Positions 2 to 38,986 of a stretch of 39,305 bases of DNA are shown in pieces. The notes beneath the pieces were generated by a model, which saw only the letters and a list, made by a program, of their open reading frames with translations, was not told where the DNA came from and did not search any database. Numbering within the stretch: the stretch's first letter is position 1; each line of letters opens with the position of its first letter. The stretch lies in the IMG/VR virus record IMGVR_UViG_2706794689_000009; one strand, given 5' to 3'. The position numbers were made by a program, and so were the translations under genes. This stretch comes from a virus (Duplodnaviria > Heunggongvirae > Uroviricota > Caudoviricetes).

Positions 2-199
2 CTATTACCTTCTTCAGAGAGCCCCCAGCTACTTCCTGTGACTCTCGATGCAGCTGCCGAACAGCCAGAATCGCTCGCAGAGGACCCGAAAACCCTCAGT
101 ATCAGCTGTGAGGTAACGTTCCGGCACGGGACGCTCCGCTTCAATGGCAATGTCAGCGAAAAGCTCCTGACTCTGCTGATACAGGAACTGAAGCGATGA
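2..199 (+). CDS. IS66-family tnpA (orf1), 3' fragment; 5' end lies outside the window
   Basis: Open frame runs from the window edge to TGA at 197-199, overlapping the ATG of the next gene in an ATGA arrangement typical of IS66 orf1/orf2 coupling. Family assignment rests on context only. Confidence 0.45.
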   Translation, partial: LLPSSESPQLLPVTLDAAAEQPESLAEDPKTLSISCEVTFRHGTLRFNGNVSEKLLTLLIQELKR

Positions 200-519
200 T
201 CCCGTTACCTTCCGGGATCAAAATTTGGCTGGTTGCCGGTATCACCGATATGAGAAATGGCTTCAACGGCCTGGCTGCGAAAGTACAGACGGCGCTGAAA
301 GACGATCCCATGTCCGGCCATGTTTTCATTTTCCGGGGCCGCAGCGGCAGTCAGGTTAAACTGCTGTGGTCCACCAGTGACGGACTGTGCCTCCTGACCA
401 AACGGCTGGAGCGTGGGCGCTTCGCCTGGCCGTCAGCCCGTGATGGCAAAGTGTTCCTTACACAGGCGCAGCTGGCGATGCTGCTGGAAGGTATCGACTG
501 GCGACATATAACCAGGTGA
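196..519 (+). CDS. tnpB: IS66-family accessory protein TnpB (orf2)
   Basis: 107-aa translation MIPLPSGIKIWLVAGITDMRNGFNGL...GHVFIFRGRSG...DGKVFLTQAQLAMLL matches the conserved IS66 Orf2 signature as I recall it. Size and ATGA overlap with the upstream frame fit. Confidence 0.85.
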   Translation: MIPLPSGIKIWLVAGITDMRNGFNGLAAKVQTALKDDPMSGHVFIFRGRSGSQVKLLWSTSDGLCLLTKRLERGRFAWPSARDGKVFLTQAQLAMLLEGIDWRHITR

Positions 520-1716: not shown

Positions 1717-3804
1717 ATGTTTGCTTCAGTTAAAGAACTGGTTGGATTACCGGGGATGCCGGGAACGGAGCAAGGCGTTCGCTATTCAATCAGGAAGTAT
1801 GCAACCAGCGAAACCAGCAGACGCCGCAAGAAAGGCGCTAAAGGTTTTGAATACAGCATTGACTGTTTACCTGAAGTGACACAGCAGGCATTACGCGAAC
1901 GTTATGCCCTGCAACTGATGACGCAAAAAGCCGATGAATCACCGGCTCCGGTGGTGACAAAGGCCAGACGCTCGTCTGCCGTGGTTGATGCGGTGGAGGC
2001 ATATCGCGGATCACCACAACTGATGGTCGAACGCCTCAATGCCCTGACTGAAAACCAGCGCCAGGTGGCAGACGCACGCATTGCGATCGTCAGTGAGGTG
2101 CTGAAATTCACGCAACAACCCGGTTTCAGCTGCGCTAAAGCTATCCGGTTCCTCGTTAACAGCCTGGCACGATCACAACTGGACGAGCGCATTGTGGCAA
2201 TGGTTGAGACGGCGAACGCCAAAAAGGGAAACAGCCGCGCGTTGAGTGAAATCACGCTGAAACGCTGGATTGCGGCCTTTAACAAGGCACAGAACGCCGC
2301 TGAACGCCTGCTTTTACTGGCACCGGGTAAACGCCAGGAAATAAAAGCCGAAGATATTAACTGGCTGCCCGAATTTCTGGCGCAGTATCGCCAGTCAAAC
2401 GGCCGACCAATGACCGAGGCTTACGAGGATTTTGTTGCTGAATGGCAGCACCGGCACGCTGATGAGCCTTATATGCTCGATATCATGCCCTCTTATGACA
2501 CCATTCGCCGCGCAATGAAGAAACTGCCGGAAGTGGTGAAACAAAAAGGCCGGGTAACTGGCAGTGAATACCGTCAGCTTGAGGGATTCACGCGCCGCGA
2601 CTGGTCCAGAATGCCGGTGAATTATGTCTGGATTGGTGACGGTCACGGCATGAAGCTGAAATGCGCGCACCCGGTTCACGGGCGGCCATTCGCACCGGAA
2701 GTGACCTTTGTTATCGACGGTGGCACGCGCTTTGTGGTGGGCTGGAGCCTTGACCTGGCTGAAAATGTTTTCGCCGTAGCCGGTGCCATACAGCACGGTA
2801 TTCGCCATCATGGCAAACCGTTTCTGTATTACTCGGATAATGGCTCCGGGGAAACCGCCGACGTCCTGGATAAGGAGATTGTGGGGATACTGCCACGACT
2901 GGGGATTAATCACCCGACAGGGATTGCCGGTAATCCGCAGGGACGGGGCATTATCGAACGGCTTAACCGCACATTACCGATGCGCATAGCCCGTAAATAC
3001 CGCACCTATTTCGGGAAAGGAGCAGATCGCGAGACGTTACGTAAAACCAACCGCGATTTACGCTCGGCATTCAGTGCCCTGCAACAGGGCAAACGGCTGA
3101 ACGCCCGGCAGCAGTCAGCGATGCGTGATTTACCGTCCTGGTCTGAACTGATTGATGCCATTCGTGACGGTGTTGAGTGGTACAACAACCGGCCGCACGA
3201 TGAATTACCCATGAAGCCGAACGGTAAACATTACAGCCCGGCGGAGTTCAGAAAAAAACGCCTGGCGGAAGAGGACACGGAAATTGAATGGCTGTCCGAT
3301 GTTGAACTGCGGGATATGTTCCGGCCGATGGTGGAGCGCCCTGTAAGACGCTGTGAAATACGCTGGCTGAATAATATTTACTACGCGCCCGAGCTGCGTG
3401 ACGAGCATGGCCGTAAGGTACTTATCAGCTATGACATTCATGATGCCGAACGAATTACCGTGCGCCGCCCGGATGGCAGCGTGATTTGCGAGGCGGTATG
3501 GGACGGCAATAAACGCGAAGCCTTCCCTGTCAGCGCGGAATACTACAAACAGCAGCAGCGCCTTAAAGGCATGCGTAAACGCGCAGAGGAAAAAATCCGT
3601 GATGCCGAGGATGAGGTTGTCAACGTGCTGGAGCACAAGCCGCAGGAGCCCTGGCTGGAAAACATATACCGCCCTGTGGGTAATACGGTGACCGTTCAGC
3701 AACCGGTCGCTGACGATGAACCTGATGAAGAATACGAGCGTAATTTCCAGCGGGGATTGCAACTGCTCGAAGCGAAATTAAAAGAAAGTGATCCGCTGGC
3801 CTGA
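1717..3804 (+). CDS. A: Mu-type DDE transposase A (MuA)
   Basis: 695-aa ORF with N-terminal DNA-binding region and central integrase-like core (VWIGDGHGMKLK...SDNGSGETADV). Position after ner. Confidence 0.93.
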   Translation: MFASVKELVGLPGMPGTEQGVRYSIRKYATSETSRRRKKGAKGFEYSIDCLPEVTQQALRERYALQLMTQKADESPAPVVTKARRSSAVVDAVEAYRGSPQLMVERLNALTENQRQVADARIAIVSEVLKFTQQPGFSCAKAIRFLVNSLARSQLDERIVAMVETANAKKGNSRALSEITLKRWIAAFNKAQNAAERLLLLAPGKRQEIKAEDINWLPEFLAQYRQSNGRPMTEAYEDFVAEWQHRHADEPYMLDIMPSYDTIRRAMKKLPEVVKQKGRVTGSEYRQLEGFTRRDWSRMPVNYVWIGDGHGMKLKCAHPVHGRPFAPEVTFVIDGGTRFVVGWSLDLAENVFAVAGAIQHGIRHHGKPFLYYSDNGSGETADVLDKEIVGILPRLGINHPTGIAGNPQGRGIIERLNRTLPMRIARKYRTYFGKGADRETLRKTNRDLRSAFSALQQGKRLNARQQSAMRDLPSWSELIDAIRDGVEWYNNRPHDELPMKPNGKHYSPAEFRKKRLAEEDTEIEWLSDVELRDMFRPMVERPVRRCEIRWLNNIYYAPELRDEHGRKVLISYDIHDAERITVRRPDGSVICEAVWDGNKREAFPVSAEYYKQQQRLKGMRKRAEEKIRDAEDEVVNVLEHKPQEPWLENIYRPVGNTVTVQQPVADDEPDEEYERNFQRGLQLLEAKLKESDPLA

Positions 3805-3886
3805 AATAAAAAAATAACCCGAGGGGTGACTCAGGTTATTTGAGGTTTCAGTCTCGGAGAATGCTGTCTCAAGCGAGGTGAATAAT

Positions 3887-4819
3887 ATGACCGATATTAA
3901 CGATGTAATCAAGACCATTGATGAACTTATTGATGGCGGCGTACTGACGCAGTATGCCATCGCCAGAGAGGCGGGAATTTCCGACGGCACATTATCGGCT
4001 TTCCGTAAGGGAAAATATAAAGGCGATAACGCTGCTGTGGCTGCTTCCCTGCGCTCCTGGTATGAGAACTGGAATAAACAAAGCGCACTGCCGGAACCGC
4101 CGCAGTTTGTGGAAACTCAGACAGTCCAGGAGCTGCGCGCACTGTTTCAGGCGGTTCGCCTGATGGGCTGTATTAACGTTATTGTGGGCGTACCGGGTGT
4201 GGGTAAAACGGCCACTGCCCGTAATTACTGCCAGGAGCAACCAAACACCTGGATGATCACCCTGTCACCCGCGCACTCCAGCGTCACGGAGTGTCTGCTG
4301 GAGCTGGCCGATGCGCTGGGGATTGATTACACCCGCGCGAACAAAGGGGCATTATCCCGCGCCATCCGCCGTCGCCTGATGGGAACGCGTGGACTGGTGA
4401 TTGTGGATGAGGCGGATCATCTTGGTATTGACGGTCTGGAGCAACTCCGGGCAATTCAGGACGCCACGGGGATCGGGATGGTGCTTATTGGTAACCCGCG
4501 CGGATTGTTTAAAGGTGGACGCCGCGCCTTTGATGATTTATCGCGCCTGTTCAGCCGTCTTGCCCGTACAAAACAACTTCGCAAGGCCAAAAAGGCGGAT
4601 GTGCTGGCCATTGCCATGGCGTGGGGGATCAGTGGTGAGGCCGAGCTGGCCGTCATGCAGGCTATCGCTGAAAAGCCGGGAGCGTTACGCGTTCTGACAC
4701 ATACGCTTAACCAGGCGTGGCTCACCGCCAGCGGTGAAGGCGCGGCGCTGACAGAAAAACATATTAATGCGGCCTTTAAAGAGGTTTATACCAACCCTGA
4801 ATTACTCTCACAGGTGTGA
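3887..4819 (+). CDS. B: Mu transposition ATPase B (MuB, AAA+ target DNA activator)
   Basis: Walker A GVPGVGKT and Walker B LVIVDEADHL. Overall co-linearity with Mu B (LPEPPQFVETQTV, KPGALRVL). ATG 3887 chosen after a GAGGTG ribosome-binding site; the frame opens at GTG 3878. Confidence 0.9.
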   Translation: MTDINDVIKTIDELIDGGVLTQYAIAREAGISDGTLSAFRKGKYKGDNAAVAASLRSWYENWNKQSALPEPPQFVETQTVQELRALFQAVRLMGCINVIVGVPGVGKTATARNYCQEQPNTWMITLSPAHSSVTECLLELADALGIDYTRANKGALSRAIRRRLMGTRGLVIVDEADHLGIDGLEQLRAIQDATGIGMVLIGNPRGLFKGGRRAFDDLSRLFSRLARTKQLRKAKKADVLAIAMAWGISGEAELAVMQAIAEKPGALRVLTHTLNQAWLTASGEGAALTEKHINAAFKEVYTNPELLSQV

Positions 4820-5043: not shown

Positions 5044-5310
5044 ATGAGGTGTTATATGAATATGCAATCCTGCGGTAACAAAATGAATTTATTCGACTCC
5101 CTGAACAGCGCGCGCCGTCTGACCGAACTTGCCGGTGCGGTACTGGAACGCAGTAAGCGCTATCCGCAACGTTTTGCACTGAAAACCACGCCGCCGGTAG
5201 GCAACGTGCAGGGAACCGGTGAAATTGAAATCACCATACAGACCAACGGCCTGCGCCGCCGTGTGAAGGCCACCCGCATCAGCGGCTGCACGGTTTACTG
5301 GGAGGTGTGA
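5044..5310 (+). CDS. Hypothetical early-region protein
   Basis: 88-aa ORF on the same strand, contiguous with neighbours; multiple possible ATG starts (5044/5056/5062). Confidence 0.45.
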   Translation: MRCYMNMQSCGNKMNLFDSLNSARRLTELAGAVLERSKRYPQRFALKTTPPVGNVQGTGEIEITIQTNGLRRRVKATRISGCTVYWEV

Positions 5311-5311
5311 G

Positions 5312-5593
5312 GTGAAAAAAAATCTCATTGCATGGGCGTGGTCGAGTGGTCTTATTGAGTTTGGTTACGTCCTGCCGGAAGGTGCATTGCCGATAGTTGC
5401 CGGAAAGCCTGCCACGGTACGGCATGTGATTGAGGTTATGGCGCGTCATGGACGTGATGAACAGGAGCAGTTACTGGTTCCGGGGATACCGGAAGCGGTG
5501 ACGGAGGAAGAAGCCTTTAATGCCATGATTCGGTTCTGCCGTGAGGTTAGACGCCGGGTCAGTTATCCAAACAGAACGAGGACCAGAGGATGA
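5312..5593 (+). CDS. Hypothetical early-region protein (GTG start)
   Basis: 93-aa ORF tightly packed between neighbours; its end overlaps the next start. Confidence 0.4.
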   Translation: MKKNLIAWAWSSGLIEFGYVLPEGALPIVAGKPATVRHVIEVMARHGRDEQEQLLVPGIPEAVTEEEAFNAMIRFCREVRRRVSYPNRTRTRG

Positions 5594-5862
5594 GTAAAGT
5601 CGTACGCATTATTTTCGAATACAAGGAAGATGTTATCTGCAAAAACTCTGATGGCAGCACGCACAGAGGGGTAAGTCTGGATATACGTTCAACCGGAATA
5701 AAGAAGAAAGATAATGGACCCGCCATGATTTTTGGGGTGGTTATGCTGGCAGAAAGCAGAAACTTCGCAGAGTTTGTGGCAATGAAAGCCAGTGCATTCA
5801 TGAAAGACAGAGGCATGGCTTCCGGGGTTATTAACGGTAATGAATTTAATCAACAGGGGTAA
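5590..5862 (+). CDS. Hypothetical early-region protein, tandem paralog copy 1
   Basis: 90 aa, begins MSKVVRIIFEYKEDV. The next gene has a near-identical N-terminus. Confidence 0.55.
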   Translation: MSKVVRIIFEYKEDVICKNSDGSTHRGVSLDIRSTGIKKKDNGPAMIFGVVMLAESRNFAEFVAMKASAFMKDRGMASGVINGNEFNQQG

Positions 5863-5866
5863 TTCC

Positions 5867-6160
5867 ATGAGCAAAGTACGCGTTATTTTTGAATTTAATC
5901 ATGTTTCGCATGACGAAAAGTTGGCAGGCAATGACTGTGTTGAAGTGCATGAAAAGATTGGAGTGGATGTGAAAACAGAACGTGATACGGATAACAGGCC
6001 GACGTCACTCTGTGACGTTTATGCAAGTATTCTCCAGTATCACAGTCCTGCAATTATTCAGTTTCTCTCAGCGGAATTTCAGGCATCTGCACAGTCTTTT
6101 GGAGCGGATGCCATCATTAAACGCCACCGCGTGCATAAAGCATCAGGCACACTGCAATAA
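5867..6160 (+). CDS. Hypothetical early-region protein, tandem paralog copy 2
   Basis: 98 aa from ATG 5867, begins MSKVRVIFEFNHV. Starts 5 nt after the stop of copy 1, with an AGGGG ribosome-binding site. Confidence 0.55.
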   Translation: MSKVRVIFEFNHVSHDEKLAGNDCVEVHEKIGVDVKTERDTDNRPTSLCDVYASILQYHSPAIIQFLSAEFQASAQSFGADAIIKRHRVHKASGTLQ

Positions 6161-6171
6161 GGAAAAACAAA

Positions 6172-6702
6172 ATGGCTAAACGCGTTACAAAATTAAAGGC
6201 CGCAGCCGAGGCGGCACCGCAGACCCGGGAAGAAGTCAGCCGTGATATCCGCACCCTGGGAGATATTCAGCGAGAGGCGCTGCGCCTGGAAACGGCGATG
6301 AATGACGAAGTGGCAGAAATCACCGCCCGTTATACGCCGCAGATTGAAAATCTTAAAAAGCAAATCAAAGTGCTTTTTAAAGGGATTCAGGACTGGTGCA
6401 AAACCAACCGTGATGAGCTGACGAACGGCGGCAAAACCAAAACAGCCAATCTGACCACCGGAACGGTGTCATGGCGGCTGGGAACGCCATCATGCAGCGT
6501 CAGCCGTGATGTGGAAGGTGTGATTGAAATGCTGCGCCGTATGGGGCTTGAGCGTTTCATCCGCACGAAAGAGGAAGTGAACAAGGAAGCCGTCCTGGCG
6601 GAGCCGGATGCTGTGAAAGGCATTGCCGGTATCAAGGTGAATAAAGGCGCTGAAAGTTTTTATGTCGAGCCTTTTGAACAGGACGCCGGACTGAATAAAT
6701 AA
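6172..6702 (+). CDS. gam: Gam-like host-nuclease inhibitor (DNA-end binding)
   Basis: 176 aa. Coiled-coil N-terminus and motifs TGTVSWRLGTPS, FIRTKEEVNKEA typical of the Mu Gam family. Position in the early region fits. Confidence 0.8.
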   Translation: MAKRVTKLKAAAEAAPQTREEVSRDIRTLGDIQREALRLETAMNDEVAEITARYTPQIENLKKQIKVLFKGIQDWCKTNRDELTNGGKTKTANLTTGTVSWRLGTPSCSVSRDVEGVIEMLRRMGLERFIRTKEEVNKEAVLAEPDAVKGIAGIKVNKGAESFYVEPFEQDAGLNK

Positions 6703-7899: not shown

Positions 7900-8451
7900 A
7901 TGATGAAATTACAACCCATGGGACTAAAAGGTCGCGCCCCCGCTCATGTCCGTCCGTGGACACCTGAAGAAGATGCGCTGCTGATTGCGCTTTATTCATC
8001 CACCCCGGTTAAGGATATTGCTGCCAGAATAAAAAGAACTGTCTGGGCTGTATATAACCGGACTGGTGTATTGCGCAGTTCATACCCGGAGTTACTGAAA
8101 TATAAACACCCAAGATTTACACCTGATGAAGATAAGTTTATTCGAAAAAATGCCAGAACAATGACCTGCCAGCAAATGGGAGAATATCTCGGACGTAATA
8201 AAGATTCTGTCAGATGTCGGGCAGGAATGATTGGTGCTGGATTAACAAAGTGCGGAGAGTTACGCCCCGGCACGCGCATATCTGATGATGATGTACGTCT
8301 TATACGTGAGCTGCGTGATTCCGATTACCCACGCCGTCTGTCATTCCGGGAAATTGGCGAAAAGTTTGGAATATCTGAACATTCTGCTCACGCAGTTTAT
8401 TACCGTCGCCGGACTGCCGAGGACGCTGTATTACGGGAGTTAACGCCATGA
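7900..8451 (+). CDS. Putative DNA-binding protein with two Myb/SANT-like W/FTPEED repeats and a C-terminal HTH-like segment
   Basis: Translation shows WTPEEDALLIALY...VWAVYNR and FTPDEDKFIRKNAR...VRCRAGM repeats, followed by LSFREIGEKFGISEHSAHAVYYRR. Confidence 0.5.
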   Translation: MMKLQPMGLKGRAPAHVRPWTPEEDALLIALYSSTPVKDIAARIKRTVWAVYNRTGVLRSSYPELLKYKHPRFTPDEDKFIRKNARTMTCQQMGEYLGRNKDSVRCRAGMIGAGLTKCGELRPGTRISDDDVRLIRELRDSDYPRRLSFREIGEKFGISEHSAHAVYYRRRTAEDAVLRELTP

Positions 8452-38047: not shown

Positions 38048-38094
38048 GATTGAGTGATAAAGATATCAACAACAAAGCAGGAGGTTATGCGGCC

Positions 38095-38295
38095 ATGTAT
38101 CGAAACATACGGTGCCGACATTGTAACAAGCTACTGGCACGAGCCAGCTTCAGTTATCTGGAAGTTAAATGTCCGCGCTGTAAAACCCTCAATCAAATCA
38201 CATCTCAGAGCGCCACAGAGCACCCCACATACACAAGGAAATCCTGTCGTGGGGAACAGAAAGCAAGTTACATCCCGTATCATCAGCACGCCTGA
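38095..38295 (+). CDS. com: Com zinc-finger translational activator of mom
   Basis: From ATG 38095 (AGGAGG 10 nt upstream): [35 protein letters not shown]...EHPT, co-linear with Mu Com including the CxxC-(16)-CxxC zinc finger. Confidence 0.8.
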
Positions 38296-38986
38296 ACTTA
38301 TTCACTATAACGACAATATCGTCGGTTATGGCTCCCGTGAGTTACGGGTTGAGACAATAAGTTGCTGGCTGGCCCGGCTGGTCGTCGTCAATAAACATTA
38401 CAGCCATCGTTTCGTAAATAATTCCTACCTTCATCTGGGCATATTTTCAGAACGGGAGCTGGTTGGCGTAATGCAATGGGGTTATGCCCTTAATCCAAAC
38501 AATGGTGCACGCGTCGTAACTGGCACGCAGAACCGCGAATATATGGAGCTTAACCGGTTATGGCTGCATGACTGTATGCCGAGAAACTCCGAATCAAGGG
38601 CAATCAGTTACGCGCTCAAACTAATCAGACAACTTTATCCGCAGGTGCAGTGGGTTCAGTCGTTTGCAGATGAGCGTTGTGGCTGTCTTGGTGTCGTGTA
38701 CCAGGCAAGCAATTTTGATTATGTAGGCAGTCATGAAACAACATTCTATGAACTTGATGGCGAGTGGTATCACGAGATTTGCAAGAATGCAATCAAACGA
38801 GGAGGACAGCGAGGTGAACATCTGCGGGCTAATATCGACAGAGCCAGTGTTCATAAATTCCGTCAGTTTCGTTACATCCGGTTTCTGGACAAGAGAGCCA
38901 GAAAACGCCTTAACACAAAGCTATTCAAAGTCCAGCCTTACCCAAAACCACAAACAGTTAAAACTGGTTTGAAAGAGAGTGAATGA
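38249..38986 (+). CDS. mom: Mom-like DNA modification protein (start inferred as GTG 38249)
   Basis: Long frame overlapping the 3' end of com as in Mu; about 245 aa from GTG 38249. An AAGGAA ribosome-binding site and the GTG lie inside a stem CCCCAC...GTGGGG (about 38223-38254), resembling the Mu mom translation-inhibition structure that Com opens. No sequence-level identification of Mom was possible. Confidence 0.6.

Follow-up and report, generated by a model that had tools for sequence, protein, structure and literature searches.

Two diverged small early proteins encoded before gam in a Mu-like Escherichia coli prophage, likely distant relatives of the Mu protein Gnarl2

Introduction

The small protein Gnarl2 of phage Mu (orf63, also called gp7, E6 or Mup07; NP_050611.1, NC_000929 4784..5047) has recently been described as an accessory factor acting on the host O-antigen (Silas et al., Nat Commun 2025, PMC12373910; preprint 10.1101/2023.04.06.535777). 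When it was expressed alone in wild E. coli, the O-antigen ladder of ECOR1 and ECOR22 shifted slightly downwards and T5 infection of these two strains rose 10^5-6-fold; ECOR3 did not respond, and disruptions of O-antigen genes phenocopied the effect (PMC12373910). No correlation was seen between the phenotype and the defence systems of the test strains, and affinity purification-mass spectrometry yielded no clear target. The authors suggested that very small proteins of this sort act as modulators of the host's O-antigen enzymes, the benefit to the phage being superinfection exclusion or less adsorption of the progeny to cell debris (PMC12373910). Here, we analysed two adjacent open reading frames (ORFs), called A and B, that immediately precede gam in a Mu-like transposable prophage of Escherichia coli, the IMG/VR record IMGVR_UViG_2706794689_000009 (39,305 nucleotides (nt); this whole stretch is hereafter 'the window'). 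Our analyses indicate that A and B are likely to be very distant homologues of each other and that they are related to Gnarl2 at the level of a superfamily.

Other small phage proteins acting on the same host structure are known. Gnarl1 and Gnarl3 are small O-antigen-modifying proteins of lytic phages, and Gnarl3 binds GalU (PMC12373910). Judging from their description, they are like A and B in concept, as very small, non-enzymatic accessory proteins that alter the lipopolysaccharide (LPS)/O-antigen ladder, an activity that we only propose for A and B; they are, however, described as separate genes of other phages. The Iap protein of Pseudomonas phage D3, a small inhibitor of the host O-antigen polymerase (cited in PMC12373910), similarly offers a described case of a small phage protein that inhibits an enzyme of O-antigen assembly but, unlike A and B, it works with phage-encoded enzymes in seroconversion. 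A Thoeris paper that was matched on the words 'phage Mu' was discarded, as the match was an artefact of the words 'phage mutants'.

Gnarl2 shares several traits with A and B. Like them, it is a small soluble early-operon protein (87 amino acids, aa) encoded between MuB/kil and gam of a transposable phage, and its N-terminal sequence MAKVIIEI is reminiscent of MSKVRVIFEF in the pair. Two features that we defined in this work are common to the three proteins, namely the N-terminal motif M-[AS]-K-V-x-[VI]-I-[FI]-E and a landmark of the predicted helix, with a Gly located 19 residues past a conserved Ser. In contrast, the sequence identity of Gnarl2 to A and B is only ~17-20%, and the single gp7 gene of Mu (L001:4784-5047) is separated from gam by gp8 and gp9, whereas the two copies of the window abut gam. 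The experimental phenotype is that of Gnarl2 alone, A and B being known here from their sequences.

Results

A and B are small genes of a continuous early operon

A preliminary description of this DNA reported two adjacent small early ORFs of 90 and 98 aa. Their positions and the length of A are correct (Table 1); B has 97 residues, the figure of 98 including the stop codon. The start of B is an internal ATG of a longer ORF (5840-6160). The ATG of A overlaps the stop codon of the upstream ORF (ATGA), B begins 4 nt past the stop codon of A, and no promoter-like or terminator-like sites were found on the + strand between the genes around A and B. Based on this tight spacing and on the lack of such internal sites, A and B belong to a continuous early operon.

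ORF A codes for a basic protein, with an isoelectric point (pI) of 9.3, and ORF B for a mildly acidic one (pI 6.3). No transmembrane segments were predicted in either protein (maximum KD19, the Kyte-Doolittle hydropathy over 19 residues, <=1.2). Scans of Pfam, NCBIfam and PADLOC gave no matches for A or B, and the first two revealed no enzymatic or DNA-binding signatures. In the PHROG collection, A and B are assigned to different families, phrog_4107 and phrog_2230, respectively. Residues 3-97 of B match positions 1-88 of the 89 positions of phrog_2230, which is a near full-length HMM (hidden Markov model) match. B is thus a clear member of this family, whose proteins are found as single copies in Mu-like phages of Escherichia, Kluyvera and other Enterobacteriaceae. 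HMMER detected no match of A to phrog_2230 at E <=1, and A is linked to it only through profile-profile comparison.

Profile comparisons support a single, very diverged family

We collected 103 loci around Gam homologues, using gam as an anchor, to which were added Mu itself and four loci found later, and we built a local ORF set from them. The sequences were trimmed to their true starts for clustering and for hhalign comparisons. In the latter, 'core' designates eight other subfamilies, and the background consisted of 93 ORF clusters unrelated to the family, taken from these loci.

An HMM iteration seeded with B alone gained proteins of 89-91 aa of the Mu-proper type and then Mu gp7. An HMM of B and gp7-type proteins, built without A, detected the members of A over their full length, with E-values of 4e-4 to 4e-3 in a set of 3285 ORFs. 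In profile-profile comparisons with the core, hhalign yielded probabilities of 98.9% for B (P=1.2e-17, 75 columns), 90.4% for A (P=1.4e-6, 75/90 columns) and 91% for the Gnarl2 subfamily (P=1.1e-6, 73 columns). The probability was 93% when A was compared with everything except A (P=3.3e-7, 76 columns). The best P values obtained with the 93 unrelated clusters were 0.02 for A and 0.007 for Gnarl2. The A versus core score was 36.5, whereas column-shuffled alignments of A gave 10.9 +/- 2.3 and at most 22.7 (150 shuffles; z=10.9), and the comparison of Gnarl2 with the core reached z=12 against column shuffles. B is also linked to five other subfamilies by blastp, with best E-values of 1e-6 to 1e-13, and a scan of 38,880 PHROGs matched Mu gp7 to phrog_2230 over residues 1-78 (E=0.009).

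Features of the sequences themselves are consistent with these results. The helix landmark, [SA][PRQK]x[IFLV][IAVL]-x14-G, in which the Gly is found 19 residues past the Ser or Ala, is present in 21/21 proteins of subfamily B, 10/19 of subfamily A, 12/14 of the L068 type and 7/9 of the Gnarl2 type, and it is absent from all 426 background ORFs of 75-120 aa. Furthermore, the offset between the acidic residue of the N-terminal motif and a conserved Pro is 34 residues in A and in the L068/L089-type proteins alike, and lengths range from 87 to 100 aa across all subfamilies.

Taken together, these data indicate that A and B are likely to be very distant homologues over their full length. At the sequence level, phrog_2230, phrog_4107 and phrog_10252 appear as a single superfamily, phrog_10252 being that of Mu gp7/Gnarl2. 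The relation of A and B to Gnarl2 is at the superfamily level, via the core, and does not imply membership of phrog_10252. The preliminary description had called the two genes tandem paralogs. The profiles uphold this indirectly, through transitive remote evidence in which the N-terminal motif dominates, and direct alignment lends it little weight.

The family appears to be narrow. Word-indexed searches with A and with B retrieved only close E. coli relatives, and the sole addition made by one seeded with the superfamily alignment was the Mu gp7 type. When 1.84 billion representative proteins were searched exhaustively by HMMER with a joint profile, only 17 matched at E <=0.001. The credible members among them are all from Mu-like phages, and only four of them are new full-length members (P0099 to P0102); two others, P0097 and P0098, are spurious repetitive proteins.

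Several observations weigh against full-length homology. The first ~12 residues carry most of the signal. Once they are removed, the A versus core comparison weakens to P=0.002 and that of Gnarl2 with the core to P=0.03, with 6/100 shuffles as good as the latter. Direct hhalign comparisons with Gnarl2 are not significant (0.3% for A and 0.4% for B), and direct blastp comparisons with it gave E-values of at least 0.2. The landmark motif was defined post hoc, from sequences that we had inspected. Lastly, the direct A-B comparison is not significant, as detailed below.

The direct A-B similarity is N-terminal

By blastp, A and B share 22% identity over 76 aa (E=6e-4 in a single comparison), with the resemblance confined to the first ~12 residues. 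Using shallow family alignments, hhalign gave a probability of 84% but aligned only the N-terminal 33-45 residues; with the trimmed sets, the probability was 19%, and no signal was left after removal of the first ~12 residues (z=0.3). The best blastp links of A are with B (1e-5), P0100 (2e-5) and P0101 (8e-4), and B is therefore not clearly nearer to A than members from other phages are. A link between A and B obtained by single-linkage BLAST clustering of untrimmed 'longest ORFs' was rejected as spurious, since it arose from matches between N-terminal extensions that had been read from the same upstream gene.

The 5' ends of the two genes are much more similar than the rest, with 26/33 identical nt after a one-codon gap, which could reflect constraint or gene conversion. 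An alternative to full-length homology is thus that the relatedness of A and B is limited to a 5' cassette of ~12 codons, maintained in similar form by gene conversion, recombination at the junction or constraints on translation initiation, and that the remainders of the two proteins are unrelated. The N-terminal confinement of the direct similarity agrees with such a cassette, and so do a locus in which a rearrangement took place exactly at the ATG (L035, see below) and a natural fusion (P0030, see below) which shows that A/B deletion fusions do arise. Nevertheless, without its N-terminus A still aligns with the core in the same register, above the shuffle null (z=3.7; 1/100 shuffles as good). 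The spacing between landmarks that A shares with the L068/L089 type, the absence of the helix motif from the background ORFs, and the similar lengths and predicted strand-strand-helix-strand order of the subfamilies are also at odds with unrelated remainders. We therefore regard the cassette as improbable and retain very distant, full-length homology. The preliminary description had considered that similarity restricted to the first few residues would argue against paralogy. This is nearly the situation of the direct A-B alignment, but not that of the profile comparisons via intermediates.

Structure prediction gives compatible models

The AlphaFold2 model of A (mean predicted local distance difference test score, pLDDT, 78.5) is composed of a beta-hairpin, a long helix and a C-terminal strand, and the model of B (pLDDT 72) has the same topology. 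In both, a long beta-hairpin comes first, followed by a helix of ~30 residues and then by a short C-terminal strand. However, the two models were generated from the same joint alignment, and they are therefore not independent and amount to weak evidence for homology. Sequence-profile searches of the PDB with the superfamily profile and with the A profile returned nothing significant; the best match, a fragment of a glycosyltransferase at E=0.08, was judged to be due to chance. The structural neighbours of the A and B models were not informative.

Copy number and origin of the pair

All the enterobacterial Mu-proper and Sp18-like loci that we examined contain a family member, and about 80 of the collected loci carry the family. 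It was undetectable in the more distant Mu-like elements examined, including those of Gilliamella, Orbaceae, Pseudomonas and Rodentibacter. Nearly all Sp18-like loci harbour the A-B pair directly before gam, and the Mu-proper-type loci one copy. Four loci (L004, L105, L106 and L108) have a single copy immediately before gam, in the same slot as B, and the pair is also kept in L107. The slot of B directly upstream of gam is thus the one where single copies are mostly found, and it is probably ancestral. A is the added copy; it is the fastest-diverging one and a hot spot of allelic replacement.

The corresponding slot of the Mu-proper-type loci is occupied either by a gp7-type allele (phrog_10252) or by one of the phrog_2230 type, of equal length and beginning with MAKVI[IF]E[IF]. 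In the loci L065-L104, which are of this type, the gp7 slot is ~755 or ~326 nt upstream of gam and holds one of two very different allele classes; its variable distance to gam implies that gp8/gp9-like genes are present or absent.

In the Sp18-like locus L035 (3597-3989), A is missing and the ATG of B is joined exactly to the context that precedes A elsewhere. On sequence grounds this may be either a pre-duplication state or a clean loss of A. Tandem duplication would be the simplest origin of A, but capture of a second allele by recombination is also possible, given that the members of other phages are about as close to A as B is. The local duplication put forward in the preliminary description is accordingly no more than plausible: the copy-number survey and L035 are compatible with it, and the distances of A to B and to the other members would equally suit capture.

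Coding constraint and allelic variation

We computed the ratio of nonsynonymous to synonymous substitution rates (dN/dS) from the alleles of ~40 closely related loci for nine genes of the neighbourhood. The values for A (0.30) and B (0.45) are the two highest, compared with 0.05 for MuB, 0.10 for gam, 0.11 for kil, 0.13 for orf93, 0.17 for gp11, 0.19 for gp12 and 0.24 for orf75. As they are clearly below 1, both frames are held under constraint at the protein level.

In the databases, alleles of A and B are often truncated, frameshifted or fused, which is typical of dispensable accessory genes. Several alleles of B (P0052, P0061 and P0063) are frameshifted into an alternative frame of 65 aa that overlaps B (Table 1) and ends with ...NATACIKHQAHCNKEKQNG; B is recurrently pseudogenised. 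A protein encoded on an E. coli contig, P0030, results from a natural in-frame deletion fusing residues 1-49 of A to residues 80-97 of B (window positions ~5590-5736 and ~6104-6160), apparently at a short TTTGG microhomology. We had considered it as evidence of recombination between A and B. However, residue 49 of A is joined to residue 80 of B, and this out-of-register join is uninformative regarding A-B homology; the candidate was dropped. Lastly, in L107 (4001-4264; GCA_902846645.1), the A allele is 57% identical to that of the window, compared with 93% for the adjacent B and 97% for Gam, and A is thus replaced as an allele inside near-identical flanks.

Prophage setting and neighbouring genes

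The window contains genes of the Mu type, namely those of MuA, MuB, a kil-like protein, gam, gp11, gp12, GemA and Mom. In its early region, the order is MuB, kil-like, A, B and gam, which places A and B within the MuB/kil-gam interval (Table 1).

Table 1. Positions of A, B and other features of the window
Feature	Coordinates	Strand	Description
IS66 Orf2/TnpB-like ORF	196-519	+	Pfam PF05717, E=1.2e-37
Repressor	753-1298	minus	
MuA	1717-3804		
MuB transposition ATPase	3878-4819	+	Pfam Phage-MuB_C + AAA_22; start of the accessory early region
kil-like ORF	5044-5310		
Upstream early ORF	5312-5593	+	93 aa; phrog_1518 'host nuclease inhibitor', E=3.8e-43; stop overlaps the start of ORF A
ORF A	5590-5862	+	90 aa, starts MSKVVRIIFEYKEDV; phrog_4107, E=1.7e-54
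5' end of A	5590-5625	+	Shared N-terminal motif M-S-K-V-(V)-R-[VI]-I-F-E-[FY], read from the sequence
ORF B	5867-6160	+	97 aa + stop, starts MSKVRVIFEFNHV; phrog_2230, E=1.8e-38
5' end of B	5867-5899	+	Same N-terminal motif
Alternative frame overlapping B	5982-6179	+	65 aa
gam, host-nuclease inhibitor	6172-6702	+	Pfam Phage_Mu_Gam, E=5.5e-42; 11 nt downstream of the ORF B stop
Myb-like/helix-turn-helix repeat ORF	7900-8451	+	183 aa; weak signature, Pfam E=9.5e-4, under the curated cut-off
Mom-family ORF	38054-38986	+	Listed as 310 aa, GTG start; PF25680, E=1.6e-77

The ORF of 93 aa that precedes A has no Pfam or NCBIfam match. Based on its assignment to phrog_1518, it may be a second gene of the nuclease-inhibitor type in the operon, besides gam. 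The 183-aa ORF resembles Mu gp9 by eye; it is located downstream of gp12, whereas gp9 of Mu is upstream of gam. At the right end, the Pfam match of the Mom-family ORF covers residues 96-298, and therefore its real start is probably further downstream or the protein has an N-terminal extension. The IS66-type ORF is found just beyond the repressor end of the prophage, and transposition may have brought the Mu-like element into or beside an IS66 element.

Among 5426 complete E. coli genomes, 232 contain the 901-nt stretch around A and B, with 100% identity in one of them and ~94-95% in many O157:H7, O111 and O103 strains. In the phage collection, it was found only as an 'inserted Mu-like phage' within two records of Shiga toxin (Stx) phages.

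Discussion

The explanation that we propose for A and B, in which we infer the duplication event, the timing of expression, the O-antigen function and its target, is as follows. The two proteins are likely to be strongly diverged members of a small (87-100 aa), soluble, early-operon family of enterobacterial Mu-like phages. A would be an extra copy placed before B in the Sp18-like lineage of E. coli, by tandem duplication or by allele capture, and it would since have diverged fastest and switched to a basic charge. From what is known of Mu, A and B are probably co-transcribed, and translationally coupled, with kil and gam at the time of lytic growth. They may act in a non-enzymatic manner, by binding a host protein of LPS/O-antigen assembly and thereby changing the cell surface during lytic development, and two divergent copies could extend the range of host variants or of steps affected, or divide it between them. 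As a whole, with both the family relationship and the O-antigen function, this explanation is tentative.

The O-antigen- or LPS-directed function in particular is proposed by analogy, from homology with one remote relative, Gnarl2, and we consider it as possible but far from assured. At identities of <=20-25%, function need not be conserved, and the basic charge of A differs from that of all other members, which are acidic or neutral. Moreover, since the effect of Gnarl2 is strain-specific and no clear target has emerged for it, it offers no mechanistic feature that could be checked in the sequences of A and B. The suggestion made in the preliminary description that such genes are host-interaction factors was nonetheless a reasonable guess with an experimental precedent, as the family includes Gnarl2, shown to modify the O-antigen (PMC12373910).

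The same description also mentioned anti-defence factors. A and B might indeed bind and block host immune proteins as inhibitors of intracellular anti-phage defences. They are encoded in an early accessory region next to gam, the product of which is an anti-RecBCD end-binding protein, and to the 'host nuclease inhibitor' ORF of phrog_1518; they are small, soluble and devoid of enzymatic motifs, their dN/dS values are the highest of the neighbourhood, and A shows allelic replacement. However, the phenotype of Gnarl2, their sole characterised relative, showed no correlation with the defences that the test strains carry, disruptions of O-antigen genes phenocopied it, and it concerns a barrier at the cell surface (PMC12373910). 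Searches of Pfam, NCBIfam, PADLOC and the PDB were empty as well, although no search was made with a dedicated anti-defence library. An intracellular anti-defence role is thus unsupported by these searches and unlikely, and an action on the host surface remains our preferred, if tentative, reading.

Another possibility is that A and B serve the phage itself, in Mu transposition or replication, in the protection of DNA ends together with Gam, or in the regulation of early genes. Older genetics placed the arm, cim and lig functions in the semi-essential early region of Mu. The fixed position of the genes between MuB/kil and gam, their apparent translational coupling in the early operon and the presence of the family in all the examined enterobacterial loci of the Mu-proper and Sp18-like types would fit such a role. 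Nevertheless, the distant Mu-like elements that lack the family (Gilliamella, Pseudomonas and Rodentibacter) keep MuA, MuB and gam, and the narrow distribution of the family in the exhaustive search argues in the same direction. The frequent broken or fused alleles and the fast evolution of A and B correspond to the behaviour of accessory rather than core genes, and Gnarl2 produces a host phenotype when it is expressed without the phage. We thus consider a phage-internal role to be quite unlikely.

With host-surface modification as the favoured function, A and B represent a duplicated, divergent addition to the recently described accessory genes of the Gnarl2 type, and a modest extension of them. 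The practical gain is also modest, as no new principle emerges and what A and B do is deduced. The comparisons nevertheless unite three PHROG families of 'unknown function' (4107, 2230 and 10252). On a more speculative note, and with a low likelihood in our opinion, the pre-gam slot of the enterobacterial Mu-like phages could be a hypervariable locus for surface remodelling, occupied by one fast-evolving family of small effectors, the Gnarl2 superfamily, and doubled in the Sp18-like prophages. If so, the LPS/O-antigen machinery of the host would be met by each allele in a different one of its variants, and the basic A and the acidic B would hit two different targets or serotype-specific enzymes. 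The Sp18-like prophages of Shiga toxin-producing E. coli (STEC) and wild E. coli would then perform an enzyme-free form of seroconversion with a built-in expansion of specificity.

A family member is found in the prophages of ~4% of the complete E. coli genomes, many of them STEC of the O157, O111 and O103 groups. If our explanation is correct, Gnarl2 would not be an oddity of Mu; it would belong, as one branch, to a family that all the enterobacterial Mu-type phages examined possess, and the divergent alleles and the doubled copy would provide a natural panel for mapping the host factor and the strain specificity of Gnarl2-type proteins.

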